A DNA stretch of 59,152 nt, the filler included, from Asterionella formosa (taxonomy: Eukaryota), in NCBI GenBank assembly GCA_002256025.1. It is 8 parts of 8 records of this genome, joined end to end, with 100 filler letters (N's around TTAATTAATTAA, not from the genome) between each part and the next. Parts side by side here need not be neighbours in the genome. Positions count along the whole stretch, not along the records: positions 1 to 7,333 come from NKIB01012476.1; 7 more parts are not named here. One strand, given 5' to 3'. A program made the translations under genes and the position numbers. The notes beneath the pieces are model-generated. The model did no database searches, was not told the origin of the DNA, and worked only from the letters and a program-made list of their open reading frames with translations. This document shows, piece after piece, positions 45 through 59,152 of this stretch (its first letter is position 1; every line of letters starts with the position of its first letter).

Positions 45-360
45 TGTCCGTTGCCTCAAACCTGCTTGGCGTGTGCGTACACACACTGTCGACTTGTTTT
101 CATTGGTATGTTGTTCTTGTATTCACTGTTGAACTTGTCCGCATCTTTGTTCACATCAATAGAGCGACAAGGGGCCTGGCTCTCTTCATTGTTGTTTGCT
201 CCTGGAAAAGTCGGTGTCCGTGTCATCCTCATCAATAGAGAGACAAGTTTTTTTGTTGGAAAAATTGGTACCCGTTGTACCATCATTCGCTCGTTCGAAC
301 CACTGTCCGTTGCCTCAAACCTGATTAGCGTGTGAGTACCGGTATGTGCACTGTCGACTT
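45..360. repeat. Diverged direct repeat (~50 bp, copies at ~45-95 and ~305-360)
   Basis: TGTCCGTTGCCTCAAACCTG...GCGTGTG.GTA...CACTGTCGACTT occurs twice. The second copy has an extra CCGGTA. Confidence 0.85.
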
Positions 361-7433: not shown

Positions 7434-7710
7434 TAGCAACAGTCATGAACATATGATGTTCTATTGCTCGCTTACTACTCCGACTATTCTTTTTCAATTT
7501 TATGATCATACAATCCTAAAACTATGATGATTTACTGTCCCGCTGCAGTAGCAGCAGTCATGAACATATGGTGCTCTGTTGCTTGTTCACTACTTCGACT
7601 ATCCTTTTTCAATTTTATGATCATACAATCCTAAAACTATGATGATTTACTGTCCCACTGCAGTAGCAACAGTCATGAACATATGGTGTTCTGTTGCTCG
7701 CTTACTACCT
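7434..7710. repeat. Tandem repeat, 115-bp unit, ~2.4 copies (truncated by contig start)
   Basis: TAGCA(A/G)CAGTCATGAACATATG starts at 7434, 7549 and 7664. Confidence 0.95.
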
Positions 7711-7899
7711 GGTACTCTGACTACCTGGTACCCCCAGTATATCACTTCCTACTTGCTACTGGTACTCTGTATATATATGATAAAATGTTATTGTTGTATG
7801 ATGTACCAGTACACATGAAGAAATCCCGCCCAAGAAGAAAGGGGCTTAAACAATTTGCTACCGAAATCCTCGCGTATAAATAATGATACAAATGGGTTA

Positions 7900-9412
7900 T
7901 GGCTTAGTACAGCAATTGAATGGTCTAAATAATTAGTTCCAACGGACGTAGAAAATATTGATGCAAAAAAATTTCAAAAAAACAGTACCAGTACACGAAG
8001 TCATGGAAAACAATGGGCATAAAGTGCATTGAATATTTTCGAATGATGTATATGCAAGTATGATCATCTCAACAATACCAGACGTTCCATATTGAGAGTG
8101 CCTTTGATTTTTATAAATGTACGACACTTGATATATTTATATATTTACAAATTTTATAACTATATACATGGCAAATATATTTGAAATCGTTCTGTCATGT
8201 TAACAAACAATGCCTGCTTCATGAAAAGAAATATCGGAGTAAAGCACATGACAAGAAAGGAAAGTTTACGCAATAACGAAAAACATTGCGGCTTTGTCAC
8301 ATTGCGCCTTCCAAGGATGGAGTATGTTTAAGGTAATAAAGCCATCAATGTGGTATGTAGATGACAATTGTTTGGAGGACAGCAACACAAAGTAAACTAA
8401 ACACACATTTCCTTTTTTCTCAGTTGAATCAACAGATCGTTTCGCTTGTTGGGGAGCACCAATGTAAAACAAAACAAAATTGGTAAGTGCTCTTGTCATT
8501 GGACTTATTCACTTCTGATGGAACATAACTGACGGACATGCCACGTTTACCTTCTCTCAAAGTTAAGCTAACAACAATGAATCAGTAAGTTTTATTTGGC
8601 AACATTGGAAACCTGAAACTTACTTATTCAAGAATTTACTGACGATTTACTATTACAGACTTATACATCATTTGCTTTGATTTGGCTGTGGTAAGTGAAG
8701 CAAGCAAGAGGATACAATGGAATGGCGTGATGTTGTGTCTGTGTAACATGTCCAGCTAACAAGTCGTTCCTTCTCATTTTTACTGTAACTGCATAGGACA
8801 ATATAGCCGGCGAGTTCAGAATGACATTAACAGCAGGGAGAGAGACGCAAAAGTAATAAGGCATTGCTTTTTTGGCACAAGATTCAGAAAAGAGAAAGAA
8901 AAGGGCGAGACAGGAACAATATACATTGAGCCGAGTAGAGAGAGAAACATTGGGTTGCTGGCATGTAGAATAATAGATAGTATTGCTAAATTTGATTGTT
9001 AAATTACAATCCATTTCAATCTATTTTGAAAAATGCTTGTGATTAGAATTATGATCATGTTTACAATAGATTTACGATGAAACAATTTAAATGATAGCAT
9101 AGAGTTGATCTGATTTTAGGATGCATTATAGTAATAATTTACATCGGGCAATCACAAGAATTGAAAATTATATGAGAAGGTTTATGATATTGATGAGTAA
9201 TGTTGTTGATCAGTTGATATACATTGTGTGATGATAATGTTCTTATTATCATTATACTTCAAGGTCGGTAAATATTAATAAATCATCATAGTTATAGGAT
9301 ACCTTGATCATAATTTTGATCCAAAAATTATCATATATACGAAAATCCTGTGCCACTTAGCGTACAATAGTACCCTTGATCCTATATGCTTGATACTTTT
9401 TATTTGCAGACA
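7900..9412 (+). mobile_element. Partial diverged copy (right arm) of the TIR element seen at 29928-34168
   Basis: Shares colinear blocks with 32590-34168: GGAAAACAATG...TGCATTG, the GGTAAGTGCT donor, ATACTTCAAG.TCGGTAAA, AAAATCCTGTGCCACTTAGC, CCCTTGATCCTATAT and the terminal TTTTTATTT.CAGAC. Confidence 0.8.
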
Positions 9413-14856: not shown

Positions 14857-15422
14857 ATAGCATATAAAATCGTGAATCGGAGTATAGAGTGTCCATGCAT
14901 ACATGTTGATCGTATTTTTAGCATATACCGGTATATACATTCAGCGACTTGGAGTGTCAATATATATATTTAGAGATTTTGACAAGGAATCTATGTACGT
15001 ATTCGCAAATTTCCACTGATTCAAATATTTCAAATGGAATCACGTCATTCAAAAATAGCTAATTAAATTCTTAATTCCAGGGAATTTTCGCAACCCTAAG
15101 CAATATTTTAATTTTTGCCTAGGGGTTCAAATGCAGCAACCTTGAGAGATGTTCTCTGTACTGAGTAAAACACCACCAAAATGCGTACAAATTTCTGCAA
15201 TAATATGGATTTATGTATGTATAAAGTTTTGTTGGATCACTATATGTAAACCTATAGCATCATCACACATGTAAAAATGCAACCAGTACACCTTTATTTT
15301 GTGGGCAGAAATGCAGTTTAGTACACCAAATTTTAGGTCGAAAATAGTAGAGTCAATATGCTGTCGCATGTCGCAACCCTAAATCATTCTCCAAGAGGGT
15401 AAACTGGAACACACTCACTCCA

Positions 15423-18400
15423 TCAAGCCGTCCGAGAAACAATGGTGAATGCTGTCAAGTTGAGTTGATCATACTTGGTGGTCACATTTTTATCAAAATC
15501 CATGACCACAGTAACTTCAATCTTGTTGTTTATACCCACAAATAGGCCAGATACAATATATGTTCCAAAACTATAACCAAAAGGACCAGCAGAAATTTGG
15601 AACACATCAATATTGGGTTGAAGGTTGCCATTGACACTGATCTTTAGATCAATCACGGCACCAACCACAGGGTTGTGGAGGAGGATATCAGTGAGAGCAT
15701 TTGAAGTTGTAACTTGTTGGGCTCTTGATCCTGTTATTTCATCAATTGTATTGTCAATCATGTGCAATGCACTGCCAGTGATAACTTCGCTGCTCAAACC
15801 AACTCCAATACCAACACGGATCACCCCCATGGTGTCTAGCAATAAAAGCTCACTGGTGTAGACACGAGCACTTGCTTGGTTGTCTTTTGGGATGATTGAA
15901 GGTGCAACTTCACCATCACCATCACCTGCAACATTTGGAATACCATCGGAAATGAAGAAAAGGAGATTGTTTCTATTGGATGGGGCAACCTTGAAGTAGT
16001 CTACAGCCTTGTCCAATGCATCATCGAAGTTGGTCCATCCCGCTGCACGCAATGACATCAGTTTGTTTCTCAAGACAGCATTGATTTTGTTGCGATCTGT
16101 TGTGTCTAGTGGCGAAAACCTTCCATGATAAACAGCATCAGTCGCAAATGAGATTAGACCAATGTCGACATTGCTATTGTCCAAAATTGCAGATGCTGAA
16201 ATTGACTGCAATAAATTTAGGATTGAAGCAATCTCAGCATCAAGAATAGTATTGTTGAATCCATCATTGTTGACATCTCCAGTTGGGTTTCCACCAAAAG
16301 GATCTGTAGTACTTCCTGAAATATCAATGACAATACCAATATTAAAAGGAGGCTCAAACCCATACTTTGCAATACTTCCCATCACACATGCATTTGGGTT
16401 TGTGCTGCTCTTGTCTGTTGTAATTGTCAGCTTTTGATGTTGAATTGACGGTATCCCAGAAGAAGAAGAAAAAGATATCAAACCAGAATCAAAAGAGTGA
16501 ATTTGATCTACCTCACAACCGATACTTGGAGAGCTCGATGGAAGAAGGGTTGGTAAAAGTGTGGGTGGATAAGATGGTACAGAAGTAGGCTGGCGAGTAG
16601 GGCGAGAGGTTGGTGCTATCGTTGGTTTGTTGGTGGGAAATGTAATTGGTGCATGAGTTGGTGGCATTGTAATCGAAGTGATAGGTGCGATAGTGGGAGA
16701 TGCTGTAGGTTGATTGGTTGGCTGAGAAGTCGGTGTAGCGGATGGTCCAAAGGAGGGTCGAGGAGTCGGTTTACGTGATGGTAATAGAGTGGGTAAAAAT
16801 GTTGGCGCAGCAGTTGGTTGAAGCGAGGGAGGAGGCGTAGGTGAGTCAGTGGGTGAAGAAGTGGGTATAGCAGTTGGTAAAAATGAAGGTAACGCTGTTG
16901 GTGATGGTGTTGGGAAAGATGTAGGTTGAAGAGTGGGTTCAAAAGTAGGTTGTACGGTTGGTATCTCAGTTGGTTGGAAACTAGGAATTGCTGTAGGTTG
17001 AATGGTTGGCTGAGAAGTCGGTGTAGTGGTTGGTCCGAAGGAGGGTTGAGGAGTCGGTTCACGTGATGGTAATAGAGTGGGTGAAAATGTAGGTGCAGCA
17101 GACGGTTGAAGCGAGGGTGGAGGCGTAGGCAAGTCGGTGGGTGAAGAAGTGGGTATAGGAGTTGGTGGAAATGAAGGTAACGCTGTTGGTTGAGTGGTTG
17201 GTGATGGTGTTGGGATAGATGTAGGTTGCAGAGTGGGTTCAGGAGTAGGTTGTAAGGTTGGTATGTCAGTTGGTTGGAAACTTGGAAATGCAGTAGGTTG
17301 AGTTGTTGGCTGAGAAGTTGGTGTAGTGGTTGGTCCGAAGGAGGGTGGAGGAGTCGGTTCACGTGATGGTAATAGTGAGGGTGAAAATGTAGGTGCAGCA
17401 GTCGGTGGAAGCGAGGGTGGAGGCGTAGGTGGGTCAGTGGGTATAGGAGTTGGTGGAAATGAAGGTAACGCTGTTGGTTGAGTGGTTGGTGATGGTGTTG
17501 GAATAGAGGTAGGTTGCAGAGTGGGTTCAGGAGTAGGTTGTAAGGTTGGTATGTCAGTTGGTTGGAAACTTGGAAATGCAGTAGGTTGAATGGTTGGCTG
17601 AGAAGTCGGTGTAGTTGTTGGTCCGAAGGAGGGTGGAGGAGTCGGTTCACGTGATGGTAATAGAATGGGTGAAAATGTAGGTGCAGCGGTCGGTGGAAGC
17701 GAGGGTGGAGGCGAGGGTGGGTCAGTGGGTATAGGAGTTGGTGGAAATGAAGGTAACGCTGTTGGTTGAAAGGTTGGTGATGGTGTTGGGATAGGGGTAG
17801 GTTGCAGAGTGGGTTCAGGAGTAGGCTGTAAGGTTGGTATGTCAGTTGGTTGGAAACTTGGAAATGCAGTAGGTTGAATGGTTGGCTGAGAAGTCGGTGT
17901 AGTTGTTGGTCCGAAGGAGGGTGGAGGAGTCGGTTCACGTGATGGTAAGAGAGAGGGTGAAAATGAAGGTGCAGCGGTCGGTGGAAGCGAGGGTGGAGGC
18001 GTAGGTAGGTCAGTGGGTGAAGAAGTGGGTATAGCAGTTGGTGAAAATGAAGGTAACGCTGTTGGGATAGATGTAGGTTGCAGAGTGGGTTCAGGAGTAG
18101 GTTGTAAGGTTGGCATGTCAGTTGGTTGGAAACTGGGAAATGCAGTAGGTTGAATGGTTGGCTGAGAAGTCGGTGTAGTTGTTGGTCCGAAGGAGGGTGG
18201 AGGAGTCGGTTCACGTGATGGTAATAGTGAGGGTGAAAATGTAGGTGCAGCAGTCGGCTGAAGCGAGGGTGGAGGCGTAAGTGGGTCAGTGGGTATAGGA
18301 AGTGGTGAAAATGAAGGTAACGCTGTTGATTGAGTGGTTGGTGATGGTGTTGGGATAGAGGTAGGTTGCAGAGTGGGTTCAGGAGTAGGTTGTAAGGTTG

Positions 18401-21204
18401 GTATGTCAGTTGGTTGGAAACTTGGAAATGCAGTAGGTTGAGTGGTTGGCTGAGAAGTCGGTGTAGTGGTTGGTCCGAAGGAGGGTGGAGGAGTCGGTTC
18501 ACGTGATGGAAATAGAGAGGGTGAAAATGTAGGTGCAGCGGTCGGTGGAAGCGAGGGTGGAGGCGTAGGTAAGTCAGTGGGTGAAGAAGTGGGTACAGCA
18601 GTTGGTGAAAATGAAGGTAACGCTGTTGGGATAAATGTAGGTTGCAGAGTGGGTTCAGGAGTAGGTTGTAAGTTTGATATGTCAGTTGTTTGGAAACTGG
18701 GAAATGCAGTAGGTTGAATGGTTGGCTGAGAAGTCGGTGTAGTGGTTGGTCCGAAGGAGGGTAGAGGAGTCGGTTCACGTGATGGTAATAGTGAGGGTGA
18801 AAATGTAGGTGCAGCAGTCTGTGGAAGCGAGGGTGGAGGCGTAGGTGGGTCAGTGGGTATAGGAGTTGGTGGAAATGAAGGTAACGCTGTTGGGATAGAT
18901 GTGGGTTGCAGAGTGGGTTCAGGAGTAGGTTGTAAGGTTGGTATGTCAGTTGGTTGGAAACTGGGAAATGCAGTAGGTTGAATGGTTGGCTGAGAAGTCG
19001 GTGTAGCGGTTGGTCCAAAGGAGGGTGGAGTAGTCAGTTCACGTGATGGTAATAGAGTGGGTAAAAATATAGGTGCAGCCGTCGGTTGAAGAGAAGGTGA
19101 GTCAGTAGGTTCAGGAGTAGGTGAAGAAGTGGGTGTAGGAGTTGGCGGAAATAAAGGTAACGCTGTTGGTAATGAACTTGGAATAGGTGAAGGTTGCAGA
19201 GTGGGTTCAGGAGTATGTTGTAATGTTGTTATGGGAGTTGGTTGGAAACTGGGAAATGCAGTAGGTTGAATGTTTGGCTGAGAAGTCGGTGTAGTGGTTT
19301 GTCCGAAGGATGGAGGAAGAGTCAGTTCACGTGATTGTAATAGAGAGGGTGAAAATGTAGGTGCAGCAGTCGGTTGAAGCGAGGGTGGAGGCATAGGTGA
19401 GTCAGTGAGTGAAGAAGTGGGTATAGGAGTTGGTGGAAGTGAAGGTAACCCTGTAGGTTGAGGAGTTGGTAATGGTGTTGGGATAAGTGAGGGTTGCAGA
19501 GTGGGTTCAGGAGTAGGTTGTAAGGTTAGTATGTCAGAAGGTTGGAAACTTGGAAATGCAGTAGGTTGAATTGTTGGCTGAGAAGTTGGTGTAGTGGTTG
19601 GTCCGAAGGAGGGTGGAGGAGTCGGTTCACGTGATGGTAATAGTGAGGGTGAAAATGTAAGTGGAGCAGACGGTTGAAGCGATGGTGCAGACGAATGTGA
19701 GTCAGTGGGTGTAGGAGTTGGTGAAAATGAAGGTAACGCTGTTGGTGATGGTGTTGGGATAGATGTAGGTTGCAGAGTGGGTTCAGAAGTAGGTTGTAAG
19801 GTTGGTATCTCAGTTGGTTGGAAACTAGGAAATGCAGTAGGTTGAGTTGTCGGCTGAGAAGTCGGTGTAGTGGTTTGTGCAAAGGAGGGTGGAGGAGTCG
19901 GTTCACGTGATGGTAACAGAGAGCGTGGAAATGTAGGCGCAGCAGTCGGTTGTAGCGAGGGTGGACTTGTTGGCGAGTCAGGTTGACGCAAAGGTGGAGG
20001 CGTAGGTGAGTCAGTAGGTTCAGGAGTGGGTTGACTCGACCGTTGATGCATTGGTGAGTCAGTAGGTTCAGGAATAGGTGAAGAAGTGGGTGTTGGTGGA
20101 AATGAATCCACAGGCGTTGGTCGATTAGCTGGCAGTGTGGTTGAATCAGATGGAGGCAGGACAACGGGTCCAGTACTCATGACAACTGACGGATGGTTGG
20201 AAATACTTGGTGCGACACTTGGAATTGTGCTTGGCTGGTATGAAAAACTTGGCAATGCAGTGGGAGAAGCCGTACTACCAAGATTTGGTGGAGCAAGAAG
20301 AATGGGTTGATTGGAGGGGCCTTGTAAAACACTTGGTCCAGAACTGATGAGAACTGACGGATGTTTGGAGATACTTGGTGTGACACTTGGAAAGGTGCTT
20401 GACTCGATTTTCGAATTCGGCATTGTGTTTGGAAATTCTGTTTGGAAATCGCTTGGTACAGCAGTGGGTGCATTAGCTTGGGAAGGAGGAGTAACATCAA
20501 TGGGCGATATAGAAAAATTTCCAATGATGGGTCCTTGACAGTATCCGCAACTGCGGTCATGACTGGAAGGATAGATCGTAGCAGAGTTTAGATAAGGTAA
20601 AACGAAAACGTCACACAGTCTTTTATCGTGTTCACTGAAACTGTTGGGTACATTGAACGTTCCCAAGATCGGCAAGCCATGGTTATTATCAACAAGGCCG
20701 GTGGGTCCAGTTCCGCACGCAAGTAGTTTTTCGTCGACAAAGACCTGCCACTTGGTCGAAGTAGCAATGCCCGTCCCATTCTTTAACAGAATGGCAAAAG
20801 GGTTTTTCCCCTCGTCATAGTTGGGAATGAACCACCCGCCCAAGTAGGACGTGCTAGGATTATTCAACGTAATGACAGGACTGCCGTGGAATGAGTATGC
20901 CCATTGCGAAGCCTCAGAAGGAGAATCAATCACTGCAAAGAAAGGACGAATCGTCTGCGAATCATTGGAGAAAAATTAGTGAGAGCTGTGATCACTGGCA
21001 TCGGCATTCCTAATTGTGTCCGTATCTCGTCTTACCGGAAGTGCGGAGGCGTTGATGGAGAGCACCGATGCCGCGGCGGCTGTGTGAACCAACGACTGTA
21101 ACTTCATGCGGTTCAAATCTTTGAATAGCTGAAAGCAATTGTAAGGAAACGAAGAATGGATTGATAATAATAATTTTTGTCCATTGAATTGATTTCCCGA
21201 TCAT
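15423..21204 (-). CDS. Secreted mucin/extensin-like Pro-Thr-Ser repeat protein with a C-terminal von Willebrand A domain (~1892 aa); exons 21204-21036 and 20932-15423
   Basis: A 103-nt GTAAG...TTTGCAG intron joins a hydrophobic N-terminus (MIGKSIQWTKIIIINPFFVSLQLLSA) in frame with the 1836-aa ORF. vWA MIDAS motifs: IVIDISGST, TNFDDAL, FFISDG. Confidence 0.9.
16690..20000 (-). repeat. Coding tandem repeat, 12 units of ~264-300 bp (~88-100 aa)
   Basis: The anchor SR(E/K)(P/L)T occurs 12 times; unit ~PPPSLQPTAAPTFSPSLLPSREPTPPPSFGPTTTPTSQPTIQPTAFPSFQPTDIPTLQPTPEPTLQPT...; all indels preserve the frame. Confidence 0.95.
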
Positions 21205-21645: not shown

Positions 21646-22169
21646 AATGCCGGATGTACGGTCGTCACAGTATTTTAAAACTGGCGACTACCGGTACGTA
21701 TCGAAAAAAGTTCTTGGGCTTTTTCGATTTTCACTTATGGGCTATCTCGAGCAAAATGACCTAATGATTATGTACAACGATTTTTTTAAATTAATAAATC
21801 TGTGATTGCTTTGCTTTTATTATTGCAACACACGGAGTACATATGTTTTTTACACACAGTCGGGTCAGTCCACGACTGCGTAAGCAATAACAAAATCATG
21901 GTACCAGGTACCTGGTACCTGGAAAGAACCGTTTTCATTGGAATTATATTTACCACTGGGCAATAAACATTTTGCGTTGTGTAAAAATTATAGAGATAAC
22001 AATGCTTAGGGTTGCTAGATATGACACAAAATAATTGAATAATATATTATATGCAAGCAAATTCTTTCTTTGCTTGGGGGGCATAAATGCATTGGCACCA
22101 CATTTTCTGATGTACGGTACCTGGTACAGGTACCCTGGTATCCTGGTGGTACCAGGTACCTGTTTTCAG

Positions 22170-22269: not shown

Positions 22270-22882
22270 TCCATTGAGCTTTGTCTTCTTTATTACTAAG
22301 CAAAAAATATAAACAAGCACTGAACATATCTTGACGAAAGCATATGCTGCCGGACACAGAGGAAAACAGTTATCAATTGTCCACTTCTACTTATGTGTGC
22401 TCTATAATTTTATTACCTACCCTGTTGGAAATACATATTGCTGGTACTAGCAGTAGGCAGCCTCCCTTAAATCCATTCACTCAAGTTTGGCCACATACGT
22501 ATGCATTGGTCATTCATGTCATCACTACACTACCAGGTACTGTTCCTGTTCACCATGGAATGATGATAGCTACCAGAGGCATACTCCAATATTCCTCTGC
22601 TATTTGTCATGTGTTGTGTACTAATTACCGGTAACTCATACCAGTTACCAAGAAGTAAGTTGCAGTAAATAGGAAATTTAGCTGTGTTTTCCTTTAAGTA
22701 AAAACAGTCTTTTACCAAAACTCCCAACATACCATTGATAGATTCTGTTCCCTTTTCCATATTCAATTCTTCGAAACCGCAATGTGTATGATTGTTGCAT
22801 CACCATTGTTGTCCTTGTTATGTGGTACTCCCTCTGGGCGAAAACAATTGCGTCAAATCTTTCTCTGGCTCAATTGCCCTAA

Positions 22883-29927: not shown

Positions 29928-32900
29928 CATCTGGAAATAAAAACCATCATATTTCCATTATGCATCATGGGATTATGATCATCTGATCATAATTTTTCGT
30001 TATATCATCTAATAATTTTGATAAATGCCCTTGTAATTTAAATAGTAACCCTTTTGATTATGGGAAATTAATTATTTTATGTATTGTTTCTTTTAGGTTC
30101 CTTTATTTCAATTTCTTGGTAGGATAATGTACCAGCCAGTTAGAGTAATGTGGTTTGGCTCATCATCCTCGCCAATCCTCACTCTGATTCTTGTAACAAT
30201 GACAAACCAGCCTTGTCGAAAGGAACGAGTTTGTGATAAAATCTTCATTTGTCGTTCAAGTCATCATATGTCTTCGATGAATCATCCTCTACGTTGCACA
30301 GCATGTTCGTACTATGCAATCCGTTAAGAGCTTGAAAAGAAATCCAATGAAAACGAAATGGCTCGTCACATAAGACGAATATTTCCGGTCTGTCACCAGA
30401 GTATCAATCAGTGTTACAACCTCGATCATAGTTAAACAACATCCATTATAGAACAGCACAATCTACTTCTCCATAACATCGTCTCTCTAACAAAAACGTA
30501 ATCCATCTAGAATTGAAACGCAGCATAGCAGGCGATATGCACAAAGAAGCATGAGACTGTCTATTTATAGTAACACTGTGATTCTGGTTTCGTCATTTTC
30601 ATGCCTCATTAGATTTTCTTTGTCATTGTACTAGTTCCTTACCTTTAAAGACAGGAGCGTTTTCTTTGATGCATCTGGAATGTGTCAATGGATGGCAGCA
30701 GTTGGATTTAGAAACAAACCTTGACAAAAGCACTGATACTTTGTAGATGTTCATGAAAAGCGAGACACTTTGACCTATCGAACACCAGCCAGTCTATACT
30801 GCAAAAATGCAAGAAGCACGAGTGGAATGACCATTTATGGATTCAACTTTCAGAACAATGTATAATATTAGGAACCGGAAGTCACATTTCATCTAATTAC
30901 GGTTTTCATTAGCTGTACTAGCTAGTATTGATTGGTGCGAGGAAGCAATGGTAGAATTGCTGCCAAACGGGCGGGGCGAACACAGAGAATCCTATTAATT
31001 TTTCTCCCCAATGATCCCAGACCCTTCTTGAATGTCACTTGCTAGAGAAAATGGAGAACAGCCGCCGTGATCTGTTGATTGTTGCTTTATGGTGACACTG
31101 ACCAAAGCCTCCAGAAATCTCAATGAGTTGCTTGTTTCTTGACTTGAATGCCAAAGGGATCGAAACCAGTGGAAAAATCAAAAGGGAACTAAAAATGATC
31201 TGCAAAAATCAGGACAATTGTGAAAGAGAAATGAAGGTTCTTGGGAGGAGAAGTAAAGGGATAATTGCTTCTGGTCTTGCGGGAACAAGAATAGATTGAC
31301 CCAAACAATGTTGACAAATAGGTACCTATGGGAAAAGGAAGCAATGCTTTCGACATCATCAATCTAGCTATACACAAGCCTGCGCCACCTAATGTCATCA
31401 ATATAGCTACCTCGACTTCATCAATGAAGAAGTCAATGGGTGGAGCATGTGAGGAAAATCCGGGTTGAGGTTTTCTTGACGCCAACTTGGGCCTGATTGG
31501 CTGAACTCCTTGCAGATGAAGGCATTGAGTAACCTGGGCCTGTGAAGCCAAAGGATAAAAAAAAATCTACAACAAGGGTGGTGAGATAGTGTTTAGGACG
31601 AGGGGGGAGCAAAAGTTATCATAGCTGAACGCATTCGAAACTTGTATAGACAATAGATAGTGGCATACCATTGCTGCTCTTGGCTGACAGCTGCCAAGTC
31701 AAGTACAAACACAACAAGAAGGGTGCATAAAAGACAGTGCGATTTTAATCGACTGGCTGATACTTAGTTGTGAGACTCACCATTCTGCAATGGGGTGGAC
31801 TTTGATCATTGCTTTGTTCGAAGCACAATCAATTCGAATGCTGTCCAGTGAAACAGCCAATGAAAACAATTGCGACGAAAAAGCGCAGAACAGATCAAGA
31901 GATTTCATAGGAATTAAAATAACAACAGCAGGGCATATATGATGCACTGCTCCTTGTGTAGACTAGCTATATTTGATCATTTCCATATTTCATACTAAAC
32001 AGGTGCAGCATGGATGACTCCTCCCAACCTTTCATTAGATATGCAGCCATGTTGCGATAATTCTACAGGACTTATAGGATTGGTGATCTGGTGGTTATCA
32101 TTTCCGCATTGTATATACCACCAGTAGGAGCCATGTATGTATGCATGCATGCTGCGATAATTCTTACAAGACATAAAAATTTGGTAGCTTGGGAGTTATC
32201 ACTTCCGGACTGTATACAGGGGAGGAAGTGGTTGCATGCATGAGCAACGACTACTCCGGTATAAACTATGATCTTTAATCGATGATTCTTGATTCGTTTA
32301 TCCTATGATACCATTGATCATAACATATTGATCATATGATGAACGGTGTCGTTGATGAGAAAATGAAAGATCAAACTTTATTTTCAGGAATCAGGATTAA
32401 TTGATCTTAAAAATATGATCAAATGATCATAAACACATTAGCATGTTCAGTTTTCCGCTACACTATTGTGGCATTTCCATGATAAAAATAATTCCCAGGA
32501 AGTATACAGTACTACCGGTAGGCCATATGAATTTTGGTCAATATGTCCATATACATAAATGTATGATTTCGACCATTTGAAAAATTGGTGCTGATGACTC
32601 CCGTTTATTTGGGGGCTTAATTAAATCAGCCACTGACTTGTAGGTATAAGAAATGACACAAAAGAAAATGAAAAAACTCAACAGGTTGTGGAAAACAATG
32701 AAGTCATCATGCATTGTATATATTTGAATTATGTATAATCAAAATTGATATTAGTTTACACAGGATGTGCTGTATAATGAGCGTGTTTAAAACTATGCAA
32801 ATGTTCAACTAAATATACATTTAAACTTCTTACAAATCTTTCTATATATGTATTCATGGCTGAAATATTTGAAATCATTTTTTTATGTTCCTTGTCCTCA

Positions 32901-34168: not shown

Positions 34169-36132
34169 CGGTCAAGCCACTGTGTGGCCCAAAGACCTCT
34201 GCCAAAACCAGGAGGAAGGATTTGAGTGTTATCAAGGCATGCCAGCCACATGGGGGGTGGGAGGGGAAGCTTGGAAGCTTCCTTGAGAGCGAGAACATCA
34301 GGGAGGGTGAGGGTGTTGGCGCCACCATGGAGATCTGAGGAGATTGGCGATAGGTCTTTGAGGTGAGCGTCAAGGGCTTGGGAGACATTTGTCACCAGAA
34401 ACATGGTGAGGCCTGTGCCAAGATCATGGAGGTTGTCCACAAAATTACATCTGGTGATGGCATTTACGAGGGCGGGGGTCGCCACAGGGGAGTGGGTGGA
34501 GTCTAGGTTCTTTTCAATGGGGGCACACCGAAGGAAACATTGGTGGAGAACGTAGGCCGCTTCCCCTTTCAGAGCATCGGCTAGCTCATGATAGAGTGTG
34601 GGTAGTTCCTCTTCGATGTCGACATCACAGAATTTTAGGAGGAATCATGGGAGGGCCCCTTGGAAGCGGTGGGAAGGGAGTTTGGGGCTGGAGGTGGGGT
34701 CAGCAGGCGGGGTGTCACGGGAGCGGAGCAAAGCATTGAGGGCCTGGGTCAGGGCATCAGGGGCGCAAGGGAGCTGATTGAGGCAGAGAGTGATGGGGTC
34801 CCAGGTCCCTGTGAACCACTGTGGCTGTGTATTTGGCGATGGCTCCGTTGAGAGGAGTGACAAACCGGCCGGGGAGATGGGAGGAGGTTTCCCGGCAGGA
34901 CGTCCATGGGGTCTAGGGGGTTTGGCCCCTTCCATATATTTGCGATTCGTAACCATGCAAGAATGTCGGTGTGAGCATCCCGGAGACCCTTTGCCAGGAT
35001 CTGGCCGCCCAACTCCTGCCATGCTTGCCGGGGTCTGAGGTCCCGGTTGATGAGGATAGCGGCAAGGAATGGGGGGAGGTACATAGAGTGGCGAACATGA
35101 ACTATTTCTGTGGTGCCCGGTTGGAGGGGAGCAGTTTCAGGAGGGGTTAAAGGGCCCAAGAACTCCCCAGGGCCTCCATGTTGGTCCCAATTGTGAAGGG
35201 CTTCATCCATTGTTTCGATGGCTGGGACATGTAATGGTTCAAGAGGAGCAAAGATCTCGTCACCAGCATAAACTAAAGGGAACTGTTGGTGTTTTGCCAA
35301 CCGTGTGTAAGTACCTACAGGTACCGTCCTTACCTTCCCAGTCTGCAGACAGTCATACATGGGCATGTACATATCTGTAGCTATCTATAGTTTAAAGAGA
35401 TGATAGTTATTCATATATGGATATGCATGTGCGAGTCTACTTGTGTGTGAGTACTGGTGCCAGGTACTGTCTATTGTATCATCTATTGTACTGGTACCGA
35501 TATGTTGCACAGATATTTTGGTATGTATAGTATATAGGGAGCGCAATAACGCCAAATCTAGAAATAGGCTAGGATAACGGCACTATAAAAATTATTGATA
35601 TATATATATATACACGATTGATTTGAATTTAAATCATGCCCATCATAGGGATACCTATATATGTAGCACACATATTTTTGCATGAAAACGTACGTACCGG
35701 TATAAGATTGATTTATTTAAATCATGTCCGTCATAGTGATACATATATACAGGACGAGGTATGTTGCACAGATATTTGTATTTAAACGTACTACGTGTAC
35801 GATTGATTTGAATTCAAATCAGGACCATGATGATAGGGATAGGGATAGGGAATGACATTGGTATATCTAAAGGTGATTGAAAGTACCTGGTACTCGCAAT
35901 ATCAAGTAGTAGTACAAACACGGTGGCATTGTTATCTACTGGTAATGAAGGGGATGCAATAACACGTTCTCGTACAAACAAGGTGACATGATTGGTATGT
36001 ATTGTCACCTCGTACTCAGGCTAGAACACGTTATTGTACAGACAAGGTGACAACATTGGTATCTATTGGTGATGGAGGGGAAGCAATAACACGAGGTGAC
36101 ATTGGTATCTATTGTCACCTCGTACTTGGGTC

Positions 36133-36440
36133 AAAAGTAAGATCAAACGAGCTAAAAAATATCTATCTATGATCTTATTTAATGGAAATCATATCTAACC
36201 AGAAAGTATGATCTGAAATTTTTTAGTAGCAAGATATATTAATGTTAAAAGAAAGATCAAAAAAGCTAAAGATTGTTATCTATGATCATATTTATTGGCA
36301 ATCATATCTAACCAAAGAATGATCTGTAAATTTTTAGTAGTAAGATATATTTATGTTAAAAGTAAGATAAAAAAAGCTAAAAATTGTTATTTGTGATCTT
36401 ATTTATTGGCAATCATTTCTAACCAGGAGGAGGTATGATC
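36133..36440. repeat. Tandem repeat, ~112-114-bp unit, ~2.7 copies
   Basis: AAAAG(T/A)AAGAT..A...AGCTAAA...TGATC.TATTTA.TGG.AATCAT.TCTAACCA recurs at ~36133, ~36247 and ~36358. Confidence 0.92.
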
Positions 36441-36489: not shown

Positions 36490-36986
36490 TATGATTTGTA
36501 CCATATGAAAAATGTCGTATGACTCCCGCTAATTTATGGGCTTAATTAAATTAGTTACTTGTAGGTACAAGAATTGATGCGGAAAAATTCAAAGATAGTA
36601 CATCAGGTCGTGGAAAACAATGATATCCTCATGCATTGTATATATTTCAATTATGTATAAGCTTAATTGATGATAGTATAAACATTATGTGTATATATTT
36701 ATACGTCCTAAAATTTTTATAATTGTATACATAGCCTATACATTTGAAATCATGTTTAGAGGTTCCTTGTTATGCATACCGGTAACACATGATCCTGAAA
36801 TGAATGACAATCTCTGCCTTGTGACAAGGAAAACTGATAGAACGACGCTTCAACGCACGCAATGATGACAAAGCTTGCGGCTTAGAAGGATTGAAAATGG
36901 AAGAGTGAATGGAATCTAGCTATGGTATGTCAAGAGCACATGCCAAGGTAATCAATTGTTGGGTTCACAAAGACTAAATGATTGCT
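36490..36986 (+). mobile_element. Third, truncated copy of the internal region of the TIR element family
   Basis: Colinear with 32590-33250: GACTCCCG, GGGCTTAATTAAAT, GTGGAAAACAATGA, CATGCATTGTATATATTT, CCTGAAATGAA, GTCAAGAGCA.ATGCCA. Confidence 0.82.
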
Positions 36987-37388: not shown

Positions 37389-38352
37389 GGTGATAAAACA
37401 CGATTAAATAGCGATTATGTACCGATATTTGTTTAATAGAAAGAGACAACGGCCAATATAGATATTTGATTTATCATTTGTAAAACCACAAAATAAATTA
37501 TCTCATTCAATTCGATTTAACACAGCTATACATCCAATGCTACTTTCACTAAGGCCAGCCACTTGCTAGAGATATGACTGTTTACTGTTTGAAGTATCTC
37601 GGAAATACCTCTCATTTTCGACTGACTACAACGATATTCGATGAACACTAAAATAGTACCGGTATGCGACTCCTTTTTCTATGGAACTACGGGTGCCAGT
37701 ATATATAAAACATATCTACCAACGTTTCTTTTGATTTGATTTCTTAACCGAATTTCATTTGATAAAATAATCATTGTAGACAAATTGTAGCCTTTCCGAA
37801 AAGAAATAGCTTTGGTTGCAGCTCTTATTTTCTACTCAGGCCGACTACAATGACATGATCATCAGATGAACGCGAATACATACAACAGCTATTTCTGTGT
37901 AACAAAATTCGCATATTCGATAGATTTGCTACAGCTAGATATTTTCCCTGTTGGAGTCTTCATTGTAGCGGTAGTTTTGCTTATAGACGCTCCGAAAAGG
38001 TGGGGAAAATAGTTGAATTAATTCAGACATCCTATGTAGTGCAATCTAGCGGCATTACTGGTACTAACCTTTTGCAAATCACAACGTTGGAAATCGTGAC
38101 GATTCACCATGTTCGTCAGATTTTCGTGAGGTCTGCATTGCTCGCCAAAAAGTATACTGACAAAGCATAGACTGCGCGCCAGCTTTTTGTTATGTAGAAT
38201 GTACACATGGCTAGCACAAAGCAAAGGTAAAGGAGGAGGACCATCCGCGCCAGGTTTCTTTTAATGGAAAACAGCTACTGGCTAGAACGTGGTGAAGGAA
38301 CAAATAATAACTTTCGTGGTAAAATGCATGGTGCATTGTGGTTGTTTTTATT

Positions 38353-38353
<1 letters not shown>

Positions 38354-38425
<72 letters not shown>
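38354..38425. repeat. (TTG)24 microsatellite
   Basis: Perfect 72-bp run. Confidence 0.98.
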
Positions 38426-38426
<1 letters not shown>

Positions 38427-40639
38427 CGCTATCGCTGTTGTTTCTGCTGCTGTTATCCTTTTGGATCCTATTGTTGGAAACACGGAGCTGGCTGGTGGCG
38501 CATCGTGGTTACTGTGCCTGTATGTCTACCCTTCTCTTGCTTGTTCTTTGCCCTCCGTTTGAACTGAATATGAATTGTTTGTTAAGAAATGGAAAAAGGT
38601 CTTATGTGAGTTTGAACGGCTATGATCTTACTCTGTGAGTCATGTTCTTCGCTTCCAGAAAGCAACGAGGACTCAGTTGCAGGCCGGTTCTGGAAACAGA
38701 CAGGCAATTGTTTCGTTATTCCTTGTCAGTAGTACAGAAAGGATGCATCTGAAAGTTCGAGAAATATTTTGGAAAATGGAGACAGGTTGTGTGTTACATT
38801 GTTGTTGTTGTTCCTCTGCACCATCGTGTTCTTCGACTGTGTTCGGAACTATGTTTGTTTGTTGTTGTAGTTCCTCTACCTCCATTTCGTTTTTCCTCTT
38901 GCTTGTTCCGTTTGTATTTGGAACAGTGGTCAGTCATGAACTCACTCTGTGAACCTTGTTCTTTTCCTACGGACAATCAAAATGTTTTTGGCAGGGCAGG
39001 GTTGAACCTTGGGAAGAATGAAATGTGTTGTGCTCTGTGTCAGGCAGGCTATCAATCATTTGTTTTTCGCATTGTCGAAATGATTCCTCTGATGCAAAGG
39101 AGACAATTATATACATGGTAAGCAAGTGCAATGTTTTCTTGCCTTTTGTTGCTTGATATTGTTTGCTGTTGCTTGTTGTGGGCGGATCTCCTCTCCTATT
39201 CTCCTTCGTCTTTGTTCGGAATTGTTAGCGCATGAATTGCTATTTGTAATGAATTAGAGGAAGGGCTTGATTGTGTGCTTGTTACTTGCTTGTTGATCAC
39301 GAACTTACTCTGCAAACGCTGTTCTTTGTCCACAGACAATCAATCTGTTGAGCGAGAGATTTGTTGGGAATCAGGCTGCGACATGGTAGCTAAGCACAAC
39401 GAAAATGATGCCTTTGTAACGATTGTTTGTTCATGAACTCACTCTACAATTGTTGTTCACTGATTGCAGACAATCATATGATCAGGGCTGGGTTGGCCAT
39501 TGGGGAACATGGTAAGGAGCACAGCAGAACCGAAATCATGGCTTCGTAACTTTTTTTCTCATCAACTCACTCTGTAAATGTTTCCCTCTTTCTATGAGTA
39601 GCCAAGCAATCTTGCGATTAGTTACAGCATCCAGCTGCAAGAATGAACATCCATTGCTTGTTGTATTGGTTTGAGAATCACGTTCTACTATAGAAAGTAT
39701 CAATATAAACTATATAGCGAAGCGATTAATTTGATTGATTTTGCGATTGTAGAATGAAATTGAAAAAATGAATTGGTTACACATAATTATTTGTTTGACT
39801 AGCATATATATTTGTTTAACCTTGAGGTATTAATGTGATCAATGTAAAGATAAAATGGGAGCAAACTAACAGAATTAATGGTAGTCAGAGTGAAGAATAT
39901 TTGTGAACGGAAATGTTGCGAATTGTAGAGAAAAGTACCGTATTATAGAGATTATTACTGAACAAATTTTTCTTCGTGTTGCAAGAAAATATTGTCAGTT
40001 GGCCCAAAAATTATGTGGGTTTCTAAAATAATTATGGAAGTTGTCTAAACTATTTTAGTTCACTCCGTCCATATATATTGTATGATGCATCATATCTTAT
40101 TGTGATGTCATACCCTTAAATTATGTACGTAGCTAAATTCGTCATATTGGGCCACCCAAATAATTAATTTGGGTGATCATATTTGACTAGCGTTTTTTTG
40201 TGGCGGCTGTACCAGTAATCGGCGTTGTAGATGAACAAGAGGAAGTGAACCCTCCTGTAAAAAAAGCGAAAAAGAATAAGGCACAGACAAAGTCAACCCC
40301 TCCAGATGCTGTGACCTGCAGCAACACATACTTCCATGTCATTAATGTCTACATGTGAAATAAGCATGGCAGTGATGTTTTGCTTCTAGGTCAGCCACCA
40401 ACTCTGGCTTACCTTGATGCAAGAAGATTTCGACACAAGTTCATTTTCGATCGACTTGTTGTCACATATTTTGATCATGAGGATGACGACTGCACCAATC
40501 TAGCGTTTCCCGAAGATGAATATTGGGACCAAGTTGGAATTGATGCTGACTACGCAAAAACATATGATGTCCTTTTCATTGGTAATGGGATACCTTAATC
40601 ATCATTATCAAGTTGGCTACTATCGAAAAAACAATCAAT

Positions 40640-41992
40640 CAGGCAGAAGAGGAATCACTACAATTCTATCTGCGATGAAGAGTCATTCCTCCAATGCTAA
40701 TGTACAACACTATGGTTGTGGAGCACTTTGGACCTTGGCTTTTCTTGACAAATACAAGGTGGAAATTGCTGAAGGAAGAGGAATCACTACGAGTCTATCT
40801 GCGATGAAGGGCCATTCCTCCAATTCTAATGTACAACACTACGGTGTGGAGCACTTTGGAAATTTGCTGTAAATAATGACAACAACAGGGTGACGATTGC
40901 TGAAGAAGGAGGTATCACTACGATTATATCAGCGATGAAGAATTGTCCAAAGAATCCTGATGTGCAAGACTATGGTTGTGGAGCGCTTTCTAACTTAGCT
41001 GTGAATAATGACAACAACCATTCGACGATTGCTAAAGAAGGAGGTGTCGAAACGATTCGGTCTGCAATGGCGTCTCATTCTAACAATGCTCGTGTGCAAA
41101 ACCATGGTTAGGCAGCGCTTCTTAACTTGGCTGTGAATGACGACAACAAGATAGCGATTGCTGAACAAGAAGAAGGATATATCAATAACATTGATGCTCA
41201 AACTTTGAATGAGCATGGTGTACAGACTGAGCTCCTTAAGAATGGACGTTATTGTTGTCCTGATCACACAGACATTCTGCTTCGCCAAAAGAATTGGATG
41301 GGAGTCTGGAAGACTGTGCAAGACAGCTGCCCTAAATGCGATCACGAACGAATGAATAAACAAGGTCAGCCTACTACTCAAACAAGTACAATGCCTCAGC
41401 AGCCCTCTTCTTTGCCAGCAACGCAATCTCAGCCTTCAACCCAAATTCCAACCACTGCGAATCAGATTGATAAAATTATTTCAATGTTGAAAATGAATGA
41501 GAGAAATGCTGACATTCTAGGAGGTGATCTCCTTAAGCTTGCTCACTTCGCTGAGAATAATGACGACAACCAGAAAAAGATTGTTGAAGGAGGAGGTAAT
41601 CCTTTGTTTGTGACTGCGATGAATAAGCATCTAAACAAGGATGCTTATGTCCAATACTCTGGTTGTGGAGCACTTATGAAGTTGGCTGAGAATCGCGACA
41701 ACCAGATGACAATTGCTGAAGCAGGAGGTATCACTTCTATTGTGTCTGCAATGAAGATTCATCCAGAGTTTCCTTATGTCCAAGAATATGGTTGTGGAGC
41801 ACTTTGGAACTTGGCTTTAAATGATGGCAACAAGGGGGGGATTGCTGATGAAGGAGGTATCGCTGCGATTGTGGTTGCAATGAAGAAACATCCAGAGAAT
41901 CCTAATGTCCAGGAATATGGTTGTGCAACACTTCGTAACTTGGCTTTGAATGTTGACAACTTGTTGATGATTGCTGACAATGGAGGTATTGC
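40640..41992 (+). pseudogene. Armadillo-repeat (Aardvark-like) protein pseudogene
   Basis: About 9 units of GGI..I.SAMK.H......VQ.YGCGALWNLA. It has a 1-nt deletion near 40845, an in-frame TAG at 41109 and a central CPDH...W......CPKC module. The last repeat is cut at 41992. Confidence 0.85.
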
Positions 41993-42200
41993 TTCAGGAA
42001 AACTTAAGGAAACTTCAGGAAATGTCAGGAAACATAAGGACTAATTTTGGAGACTTCAGGAAATTCCATGCATTTCCTAACATTTCCTGAAGTTTCCTTA
42101 AGTTTTCCTGAAAGTCATAGGCATTTCCTGATAGTCATAGTCATTTCCTGAAATTCATAGGAATTTCCTGAATGTCATAATGCTTCCTGAATGTCATAGT
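41993..42200. repeat. Foldback with 40-bp arms (39/40 match) and 40-bp spacer, followed by short TTCCTGA/TCATAG repeats; probable transposon end
   Basis: 41993-42032 pairs with 42073-42112; both arms are built from TCAGGAAA-like units. Confidence 0.85.
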
Positions 42201-42880
42201 CATATGCGGTTTGTTCTCGTTTTTGCAATTAGAAGAATTCCGCTATTTATTTCGCTGAATCGTGCTATGAATAGAAGATTTTCTTTATACGTTATAAAAT
42301 ATGTCGATGTCCAGTAACATGTTGTCTGTTTCAGGAAAATGACCGCTGGTTGAAGGTACAACAACAAGATGCGGTCATTTGGCTTACCGGTAAATAAACA
42401 ATTCGATATGGGATAAAAACAGCTAAATCCTTATTTCAGCAAAATTACCGCAACTTGCCGGTCTGCGTGTTCGGACAAATATTCGCAATATTCAGACTTG
42501 CTTTCCCGGAACTCCCAGCAGGAGTGGAGAGTGTTGGAGAAATTGTTTTAGGAATGAAAAATCCCGGAAAGAATTACCTAATACACATTGAATCGAATGA
42601 ATCAAGAAAGAAAATGGTACCGGTACCAGAGAAAACTCAGAATTCGAAAACAATCTACATCGCCACCAAAATCCATACTTCTATTAAAACTCTTAGGAAC
42701 GATTACAATCGATTACATGCAACATCGTTGTTCATATCTACAGCCTATTTGGTCACTGACGAGTCCTTACAGTTAGGGCTGACGAGAAAAGGAGTTTTTG
42801 ACACAACCTTCGAACAAGAACCGAACAAGAAGTCGCTCGAATAAACATCAGACAACTTCTTTTACCTTCAAGACGACGTT

Positions 42881-44377
42881 TGTCAAGAATATAGCATCAA
42901 TGGCTATAATGAGTCACAAGGACTGTGGACTCGACTATAGTCCAATGAGTCAAATGGTGCGTTCCCATGTCAAGAAGCTTGCTAACGAGATTGATGTCTT
43001 AGATCAATCAGAAGAAGGTTTACATCAACGAAAAGGGAACACGAAGAACAGGTTCTCGAAGTGTGATGAATGGGATTGAAACTTAGTTTTAGTTTAATCT
43101 TATAATTAAGAAACAGTGAGAATTGACAGAGTAAGGTCAATAGCGAAAACTAGCACGAAGGCTAGCAGCAGAAAGAAGATAACAATACTAGTGGTATAAC
43201 AGGTAAGTTTTACGTAAGAGGAACCCGTCAGACGGGAAGGAGTACGAGACCTTTCAACACGCTTTAAAGCGTCCACTTTAAGGCCACAGGCTACTCAGGA
43301 ACGATGGGAAGTGACGAAGACACGTCAGTGAGGTTGCCGACATTCGATGGGCAAGATGCTAAATGGCACATGTGGAAAGCGAAGTTTCTCGCATACGCGT
43401 GCTACAAGAACTTTCAAGGAATACTTAACGGTGACGAACTACCAAGAGGAGAGAAAGACCTAAAGGGCGATACGATCGTGTTGTCGGATGCTGACGAGAG
43501 ACGCATCCGAAGGAGCAACACAGTTGCTTACGCAAGTCTGATAATGGCATGCCAGAGTGGGCCATTCGGACACGTAAATAATGCAAGAAGTGCCGAGTTT
43601 CCTAACGGCAATGCTAAAGAAGCATGGGACAAGCTCATTTCTACGTATGAGTCAGGCAACATGGCGAATGTCATTGCCTTGTCCCACCAATGGACGAAGT
43701 GCACTCTAGGGGAAAACGAGAACCCCGACAGCTGGTATGTGGAGTTGGATCGAATCCGGGAACGATTGGGCAATACAAGCTCTGCCGTTTCGGATGGTGC
43801 CTATGTGGCACACAGGATCAACAACCTACCTGAAAGCTACAAGAGTTTGGTAGTAGGAAGGTTCGGCCTGGCGCGCAACACGCTAACGGTCGAAGAGATT
43901 AAGACAGACATCCGGGACTACTACGATCTATATGTCCGGGATGACGTCAAAACGACTGACAAGAACAAGAGTGAACAGGCCTTCTACACGAAAGGGAAGT
44001 TCAAAGGTGACTGTCGTAAGTGTGGCAAGTATGGCCACAAGGCGGCTGAATGTCGCAGCAAGGGCAATAGTGCCGACAAGAAGGAGCTCACTCCTGAGCA
44101 GAAAGAAAAGAGGAAAACGATTAAGTGTTTCAAGTGCCAACGCATGGGACACTACGCAAGTGAGTGCACCAGTAACAGTGCATCTAAGAATAATAGAAAC
44201 GAAGAGAACAACACGACTACATCTACCCAGCATGGAATGTTCGTCGCCAGCACGTGCGTCGAAATTAGTTACAACGAGGAAGTCAACCTCGCTCGTGACG
44301 TCAGAAATCGCTGGTTGTTAGACAGCGGTGCTACTGTTCACATCTGCACGGACGTGCGCATGATGGAAGACAAGAAA
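42881..44377 (+). mobile_element. Young Ty1/copia element: candidate 5' LTR (42881-43259, TG...CA) plus gag-pol start, truncated by contig end
   Basis: An intact gag-protease ORF follows. The LTR limits are inferred only from the TGTCA...CAACA termini; no second LTR is in the window. Confidence 0.75.
43304..44377 (+). CDS. Copia gag-pol polyprotein, 5' part (gag, two CCHC knuckles, aspartic protease start)
   Basis: RLPTFDG...WHMWKAKF, GNAKEAWDKL, CRKCGKYGHKAAEC, CFKCQRMGHYASEC, WLLDSGATVHIC; no stops up to the gap. Confidence 0.92.
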
Positions 44378-44477: not shown

Positions 44478-45329
44478 GCCTTATTCCGAAATCATCACAA
44501 GCAAAATAGGGAATAGAGAAAATGAATCATTTGCATATACTAAAGCAAAAATGCAAAATTCAGTCTGAAGCTCACCATCGGAAGGAGCTACCGGTACCTG
44601 GTACCCGTAGTCTACCTGGTACCAGGGGTAACAGGGTACCCGGTGCTGAGTACCAGGTACCAGATTGTAGTATACCTATGAATGGTGATAAAGCAAGGAA
44701 TTTTTTATGGGATTGCTGGTATAGGTACGTATTAACTACCTGGTATCTGGTACCGTATCCGGATATATTTATGGCATAGTAGCTATGCTACTACTTAACG
44801 GTAATTGATATTTCACCATAATGAATTCCAATAAATGATGACAAGAACATATGTACCAGGTACCTGAATAGAGATATACTGTAGACTGCAAGTTTTGTAC
44901 CTGGTACTCTACCAACCGGTATCATTAGGAAAAGAGTGAATCGTATGATGGGACAGAATCGAAAAAAGGGAACACAAAATGCGAAACAAAATTGATTGTG
45001 TTCCCATTTCATGACTGGGTTTTGACATCGTTGTTCCACAAATAAATGAAAGAAATATGATGCTTGGAAAGGTTTCTTTTGCAGTGGTGGCATTGCTAGT
45101 AACCAATACTGTCGATGGTCAAAGAAATGTAAGCCAAACTGTGTTCCAAGCATAAAGCGACCAAGCACCCTTTGTGTCCAGTATTGACATCGTTTGCGTG
45201 ATGTGTAGTGTGTCTTACTACTATTCAGCTGAACCATTTACCTGAGACGTTTAACAATGACAGGGATCCCCTGGAGTTCAGGTTGCAAGCTGTGAATGTC
45301 TCTTCTGCCAAATAGCAGTCGTTCATATC

Positions 45330-59036: not shown

Positions 59037-59152
59037 GGTAGGAAAATTTTCTATTTACCGGAATTTTCTAAAAATGATTACCGGTAATTCTCATGTAACA
59101 GTGTAACAGGTATCCGGTACCAGGTATGTACCTGCTACCAGGTACCTGGTAC

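Follow-up and report, generated by a model that had tools for sequence, protein, structure and literature searches.

TA-bounded palindromes upstream of diatom genes look more like selected control elements than plain transposon scars

Two short palindromes, the octamer TACCGGTA and the 9-mer TACCWGGTA in its extended form (G/C)TACCWGGTA(C/G), are tentatively read here as promoter-proximal elements of a diatom that are kept by selection and are gained or lost as TA-bounded units; the confidence placed in this reading falls slightly short of even. In the stretch of DNA that was analysed (the window, 59,152 nucleotides) and in related contigs, these words are over-represented, flanked by TA and biased toward promoters, they come and go as whole units, and the 9-mer is found without decayed copies. 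On balance, the palindromes look more like selected control elements than plain transposon scars. The case for selection is drawn from the enrichment, the avoidance of ORFs, the promoter bias, the missing halo of near-copies around the 9-mer, the free W at its centre, the parallels in oomycetes and the stramenopile lineage of the host. The 9-mer variant, the overlapping arrays and the birth or loss of copies as TA-duplicating units are new here.

In the mechanism proposed, the elements would occur singly or clustered, both upstream of genes and in 5' leaders, where a putative dimeric sequence-specific protein would bind the palindromes and selection would keep them intact. New copies would not be made by point mutation. 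Instead, whole 6- or 7-nt units would appear or vanish at a pre-existing TA, an insertion at that point leaving TA on both sides. Transposon excision would be the leading, though unproven, candidate source of such insertions.

Sequence and setting of the palindromes

The window is composed of eight pieces of ~7.3 kb joined by seven spacers, each consisting of two 44-N runs around a 12-letter filler. The host is probably an araphid pennate diatom; as a diatom it is a stramenopile, as are the oomycetes. Public runs containing piece 7 are labelled as freshwater, lake-water or algae metagenomes. Pfam matches in the window ORFs were to an HSF DNA-binding domain, armadillo repeats, a copia-type gag, gametolysin M11, an XPD-type helicase, a PNPOx-like protein, Cyt-b5 and a LURP-one-like protein. 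An ORF of 2074 aa (51934-58155, plus strand) carries no Pfam domain. It has 113 full-length-type relatives, the named ones all from diatoms at 50-82% identity, and the nearest named relative is from Thalassionema nitzschioides (62% identity). Sequence comparison marks this ORF as a conserved diatom protein to which Pfam assigns no function.

Repeats are frequent in several of the pieces. An open frame of 1850 aa on the minus strand (15423-20975), with a PT disordered repeat and a VWA domain, contains ~11.5 copies of a 288-bp tandem repeat at 16696-19965 and shows an extreme GC skew (+0.54 to +0.69 on the plus strand). The armadillo-repeat gene (40645-41993) has internal DNA repeats of 129-132 bp and is followed downstream by an inverted repeat (41993-42112) and a 20-bp tandem repeat (42104-42203). 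The copia-type gag with its zinc knuckle (43268-44377, plus strand) runs off the end of piece 6; the preceding stretch 42100-43200, which holds two copies of TACCGGTA and has a homolog in the metagenome contig L021, may be the LTR of this element or another repeat. Non-coding tandem repeats lie at 7434-7708 (115 bp, 2.4 copies) and 36133-36425 (111 bp, 2.6 copies), and a ATGATCAT-like word turns up repeatedly in several non-coding stretches of the window. The gametolysin-like gene has two short GT..AG introns, at 46038-46132 (93 nt) and 46170-46253 (82 nt), both skipped by the RNA contigs of run X9.

Words were counted against a third-order Markov expectation after the 3.3-kb coding tandem repeat had been masked, which left 55,182 nt. 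The most enriched 8-mer is TACCGGTA, with 18 sites where 0.94 are expected, and TACCWGGTA (that is, TACCAGGTA and TACCTGGTA) has 8 + 11 = 19 sites where 0.65 are expected. Counts in the same masked sequence also exceeded expectation for TACCAGTA/TACTGGTA (13 sites against 2.7), TAGCTA (24 against 8.4) and TACGTA (13 against 4.5), and TACTAGTA was found twice (0.65 expected). A first-pass annotation of this DNA had called TA-bounded words conspicuous, citing TACCGGTA at 337-344 among others. The site is present and the words it had noticed are indeed over-represented. The same annotation had taken TA-N(1-5)-TA to be pervasive as a class, which the counts do not support. In a table of TA-N(1-6)-TA words of the masked window the remaining words were near expectation and the class as such was not enriched; the signal is therefore one of about five specific palindromes and not of a general TA-N-TA excess.

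TA stands on both sides of 18 of the 96 occurrences of CCGG and 19 of the 85 of CCWGG, every other flank pair being found three times at most, and for the words themselves TA on both sides is nearly obligatory. The centre of the 9-mer is always W (one-letter variants with C or G in that position number 0, with 0.2 expected). Among pairs of adjoining 9-mer units, the W is identical in 71 and differs in 63, which shows a centre letter that is free within a word that is otherwise exact. Such a near-random centre argues against plain slippage and fits either scars laid down in random orientation or a constraint from which the W is exempt. Isolated 9-mers have G/C flanks, as written in the extended form, and then more TAs outside. 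Only one array of such units in the window, at 59102-59151, was reported by Tandem Repeats Finder.

The TA flanks, the restriction of the centre to W and the lack of linkage between neighbouring W letters also favour an alternative that is serious and nonetheless unlikely, namely that the words are neutral footprints of Tc1/mariner-type excision. Elements with CC...GG ends would enter at a TA, which is thereby duplicated, and later be excised; repair would leave TA, four or five terminal letters and TA, with W as the mismatch where the overhangs meet, and scars would accumulate at any place that tolerates them. In Sleeping Beauty the canonical scar has a W-centred filler, like the diatom 9-mer, and the first five letters of Mos1-type mariners are those of the 5-nt filler.

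The two words differ in their near-copies. Steady neutral decay predicts an excess of one-mismatch copies of about the number of perfect copies. For TACCWGGTA, the window has 13.0 one-mismatch variants with 13.3 expected beside 19 perfect sites, an excess of ~0, and the related contigs, which were picked by motif, have 130 with 93 expected beside 250 perfect sites, an excess of 37. For TACCGGTA, there are 38 variants with 16.4 expected, an excess of ~22 beside 18 perfect sites, and CpG positions account for 17 of them where 5 are expected. The TACCGGTA halo fits neutral decay and, with it, the earlier idea of CpG decay, so that TACYRGTA is plausibly a CpG-decayed TACCGGTA; its neutral size favours footprints and counts against the selected-element reading. 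The 9-mer speaks the other way. Decayed copies are missing in two organisms, yet its units are common to strains that are ~1% apart over piece 7. None of the 40 listed between-strain substitutions falls in a motif site, which is uninformative with ~1 expected. One-ended three-letter fillers are a product of mariner excision. Counted on both strands of the window, they are not enriched (TACCATA/TATGGTA 5 against 11.4 expected, TACCTA/TAGGTA 16 against 17), and TACCATGGTA does not occur (0 against 0.3). The absence of mixed end-joining products of this kind (TACCATA/TATGGTA, TACCATGGTA) is a further point against footprints.

Placement around genes

The strict sites avoid coding sequence. ORFs of at least 120 aa make up 41% of the window, yet 35 of the 37 strict sites lie outside them, and the other two are in an ORF without RNA cover. 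Classing of sites as upstream or downstream within the window is noisy, owing to a spurious ORF and missing gene models. The densest cluster, at 44589-44906, comprises seven strict units and partial ones, placed 213-540 nt upstream of 45128, where RNA cover of the gametolysin-like gene sets in. The cluster at 47889-48120 is placed 110-340 nt upstream of the Cyt-b5-domain ORF (ATG at 48229), with TACCTGGTA at 47904, TACCAGGTA at 48099, TACCGGTA at 48113 and variants. The stretch 21689-22158, upstream of the PT-repeat/VWA ORF on the minus strand, contains TACCGGTA at 21689, overlapping TACCAGGTA/TACCTGGTA at 21902-21917, units at 22118 and 22150, and partial units. A looser cluster upstream of a minus-strand ORF (34752-35372) extends over 35489-35945, with TACTGGTA at 35489 and 35937, TACCGGTA at 35695 and TACCTGGTA at 35884. 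Just upstream of the minus-strand LURP-one-like ORF (start 59036), the cluster 59079-59151 has TACCGGTA at 59079, TACCAGGTA at 59118 and overlapping units at 59136-59151.

Three copies of TACCGGTA (50440, 50519 and 50555, together 50440-50562) are contained in an RNA contig covering 49426-50693, which places them in the 5' untranslated region of the PNPOx-like gene on the minus strand. The position relative to RNA thus varies between this cluster within a 5' leader and the one 213-540 nt upstream of the first covered base, and variable position with respect to transcript starts counts against the selected-element reading. Another TACCGGTA (47670-47677) is inside RNA-covered sequence and a minus-strand open frame of 60 aa, a candidate coding sequence only. 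One at 42618-42625 lies between the armadillo-repeat gene and the copia-type gag ORF. Isolated copies of the octamer occur at 14926-14933, 22626-22633, 32513-32520 and 37657-37664, the last ~600 nt upstream of a plus-strand ORF (38264-38635).

Scanned for pairs of adjacent 9-mer units, metagenomes yielded 132 stretches, among which are eukaryotic contigs with a GC content of 0.43-0.46 and the same word family. The words in these related contigs include TACTAGTA, TAGCTA, TAGWCTA, TACATGTA and GTA/TAC runs, and the top 6-mers are GTAGTA and CTACTA (~9-fold enriched). In L075 (6700-7400), L041 and L045, intergenic DNA consists almost wholly of TA spaced by one to five C/G letters, the words being TAGCTA (44 in 17 kb), TACTAGTA and GTA/TAC runs. 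Across 20 related contigs and the window, the density of TACCWGGTA per kb was highest in divergent intergenic regions (3.46), lower in tandem ones (1.68; 2.08 in the gene-start half and 1.28 in the gene-end half) and lowest in convergent ones (0.68), and 186 kb of ORFs contained not one copy. Choice of the related contigs by motif inflates absolute densities and perfect-copy counts (a point held against the selected-element reading) and affects the contrast between region classes less. With the window left out, at least one copy was present in 11 of the 19 divergent regions, in 24 of the 56 tandem ones and in 3 of the 21 convergent ones (divergent versus convergent, Fisher p = 0.007). The footprint alternative needs an extra assumption about integration sites to accommodate this fivefold promoter bias. 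Comparison of the related contigs by DNA and by the proteins of their ORFs yielded no orthologous promoters, and the DNA comparison gave one short repeat match, to L021.

Units gained or lost at TA

Every strict window site that has a homologous or allelic copy was compared with it (n = 7). In six of the seven comparisons the copy without the unit is shorter by exactly 6 or 7 nt, and the gap falls at TA in all but one, where the empty site is AA; in none of the seven does a same-length, substitution-decayed counterpart take its place. BLAST alignments tend to end at the indels of interest, and targeted alignments were added. The usable cases are those of the window, as the empty-site search in related contigs was swamped by low-complexity matches.

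The clearest case is TACCGGTA at 42385-42392, where the repeat copy in L021, 83% identical on both sides, has a clean 6-nt gap and a single TA. At 7706-7730, two TACCTGGTA lie 16 nt apart at the end of the 115-bp tandem repeat, and the first is a clean 7-nt insertion at TA relative to the two upstream repeat copies. Behind 44592, a contig of run X7 has an extra 7-nt unit that differs from both of its neighbours and is the reverse complement of the adjoining unit. For the isolated TACCGGTA at 36777-36784, the paralog at ~32905 lacks 6 nt; the gap is approximate, and an empty-site query aligns across the junction. This comparison, already drawn in the first-pass annotation, holds, in that the alignment is free of gaps once the 6 nt are removed. 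The isolated TACCGGTA at 51432-51439 is likewise absent, by an approximate 6-nt gap, from the reverse complement of ~22390, which is the AA case and also lacks the adjoining 4-nt CATA; the adjoining TA-CA-TA insertion is a point for footprints. The isolated TACCGGTA at 337-344 differs from the paralogous stretch at ~20-100 by a 6-nt gap after GTA, with messy flanks. Here the length difference noted earlier against ~77-83 stands, and the insertion then envisaged is accompanied by four adjacent substitutions. The sole comparison without an empty site is TACCAGGTA at 22531-22539, whose paralog (reverse complement of 51220-51345) has an unrelated 8 nt in place. Two further comparisons had been offered as insertions at TA. 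That of 9368-9372 with ~34126 is a 3-nt indel that can be written as TA-G-TA; that of 7986-7993 with ~36597 shows an ambiguous 8-nt gap among many mismatches and several other gaps.

Ordinary turnover of binding sites would mostly predict same-length decayed counterparts, and a binding-site model alone gives no account of unit-length gaps at TA in six of seven comparisons. At least three of the unit-gap cases are isolated copies of TACCGGTA (337, 36777 and 51432), with no second copy within 600 nt. Both facts weigh against the selected-element reading, and presence or absence of whole units at TA, including the clean L021 case and the 7-nt unit that varies between runs, is the strongest support for the earlier footprint interpretation. 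Overlapping units that share a TA, in addition, cannot all be occupied by dimers at once, which counts against selected elements as well.

A pair of allelic contigs from a related organism, overlapping by 7.8 kb, shows three substitutions and one indel, a 5-nt GACTA at TA; the word it makes, TAGACTA, is ~5-fold enriched in the related contigs, and the pair is in favour of footprints. The paralog alignments of the window and related contigs contain 117 indels of 3-12 nt, of which 5 are TA-type, compared with 10 for CA and 5 for TT. TA-targeted insertion is therefore not a dominant indel class, which tells against footprints and does not support the proposal that excision has been a major, pervasive indel mutagen in this genome.

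Oomycete parallels and the source of the units

Similar palindromes have been described in oomycete promoters. In P. infestans, TACCGGTA (M94) and TACATGTA (M93) are over-represented promoter palindromes, M93 having 4150 promoter sites (PMC3597505). A promoter motif of Plasmopara halstedii is given as ATACCGGTAT (PMC10031896). PsMyb37, a Myb-related protein of P. sojae, has been shown to bind TACATGTA in yeast one-hybrid and gel-shift assays (PMC11134190). The octamer of M94 is identical to the diatom word, and its sister word M93 is enriched in the related diatom contigs too (30 sites, 3.6 expected). M94, M93 (AM-20) and the diatom words alike are palindromes over-represented upstream of genes, often in multiple copies, in stramenopile hosts. 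By analogy, the diatom elements would seem to resemble in kind the TACCGGTA and TACATGTA promoter motifs of oomycetes. They differ in that the main partner word in the diatom is the 9-mer, with units that overlap in arrays, and in that diatom copies vary between paralogs or strains through indels at TA of exactly 6 or 7 nt. The binding assay concerns TACATGTA in P. sojae, and the accessible parts of these papers contained no functional test of M94, a point against the selected-element reading. A full-text literature search returned no promoter paper on TACCWGGTA and its relatives beyond the oomycete one and no diatom report of these words, the string matches being mostly primers.

Tc1/mariner footprints share with the diatom sites the TA flanks, the shortness of the filler and the single TA of the empty site. 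To our knowledge, transposon excision is the only mechanism that inserts the same four or five letters plus TA at isolated TAs. Diatom fillers, in contrast, are uniform and promoter-biased, the 9-mer lacks decay, and the density of sites is far above any that we know of for Tc1/mariner footprints; up to 29 units in 11 kb (L041) would call for dozens of cycles of insertion and excision per promoter. TA-flanked inverted-repeat elements with CC...GG ends, the donors foreseen in the first-pass annotation, were absent from the window and from ~0.63 Mb of related contigs, the candidates in both being motif arrays and chance pairs, apart from one hairpin. No Tc1/mariner transposase was found among the 15 window ORFs and the 78 of 125 locus ORFs scanned. 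One related metagenome contig (L047) carries a 1006-aa minus-strand ORF with a piggyBac-type DDE domain (16014-19031) and, ~1 kb from it, a 122-bp perfect hairpin with a third half-copy (14990-15115). The hairpin was rejected as a donor element, since its repeat extends beyond the TA and no other copies were found. A literature search on diatom mariner ends gave nothing useful. A low-copy donor is easily missed, one copy per Mb corresponding arithmetically to ~0.7 expected in the searched DNA. Transposon excision as the sole explanation fails several tests. In favour of the excision-footprint reading, units are gained or lost as wholes, a single TA standing where the unit is missing, in six of seven comparisons; the missing donor, the promoter bias, the undecayed 9-mer and the lack of one-ended fillers go against it.

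Of the readings considered, a hybrid that keeps scars as binding sites accounts for the most evidence, and it is unproven. In a general form, to which only a low probability is given, stramenopile palindromes of the type TA-NN(N)NN-TA would be born as transposon excision scars, each made of a duplicated TA and the terminal letters from both ends of the element, the perfect ones being retained as sites of a Myb-related or similar dimeric factor. The words so explained would be TACCGGTA and TACCWGGTA in the diatom and TACATGTA in oomycetes. Seidl et al. describe TACATGTA as a rare Tc1 footprint in C. elegans and reject a Tc1-footprint origin of the Phytophthora TACATGTA on abundance and conservation (PMC3520976).

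It is improbable that the units come from transposon-free errors of local copying, in which slippage or microhomology-guided template switching, at replication or at the repair of breaks, would copy nearby units, direct or inverted, in TA-rich promoter DNA of low complexity, units would be lost by TA/TA microhomology deletion and no function would be needed. Polymerase-theta end joining and quasi-palindrome template switching produce short insertions that copy nearby sequence, direct or inverted, with microhomology at the edges. Promoter microsatellites have in common with the diatom arrays head-to-tail 7-nt units whose number varies between strains, and the related contigs resemble cryptically simple sequence in their GTA/TAC-rich low complexity. 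Many units lie in TA-sharing arrays, with runs of up to five identical units in some contigs, and isolated units sit in a TA-S-TA context. The unit at 7706 has its direct copy 16 nt downstream, with ACTAC/TAC microhomologies, and the unit inserted in run X7 is an inverted copy of its neighbour. The enrichment of GTAGTA/CTACTA in the related contigs points the same way, as do the 2-nt edge repeats of ~30% of non-tandem paralog indels. As slippage arrays, however, the units fail, because neighbours differ at the centre about as often as not, the X7 unit is unlike both of its neighbours and many units are isolated. Several events lack a nearby template, among them the insertions at 337, 36777 and 51432, and the same few words recur across loci and organisms. 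Neutral arrays should also hold decayed units, of which the 9-mer has none, and the over-representation of the same octamer in oomycete promoters would be left unexplained.

An artefact of assembly, adapters or contamination is scarcely credible and, as far as contigs can show, refuted, for although palindromes with restriction-site-like cores can derive from linkers and the window is concatenated, contigs of three DNA runs from three other studies carry the piece 7 units wherever they cover them, one RNA run carries four units (three in the PNPOx-like 5' leader and that at 47670), the units lie within contiguous unique sequence and avoid ORFs, and unrelated metagenome assemblies contain the same words.

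The two words mark roughly half of the upstream regions seen, in a group of organisms whose promoters are poorly understood. One of them also occurs in oomycetes, which makes it an evident candidate for a control element conserved in stramenopiles. Birth unit by unit at TA is not what binding sites usually show. Were transposon excision the source, the diatom would offer a concrete example of regulatory motifs made by mobile elements from the scars they leave, and the question set aside for TACATGTA in Phytophthora would be reopened. Should scars indeed be retained as sites, cut-and-paste elements would seed regulatory words across promoters and leave no other trace.
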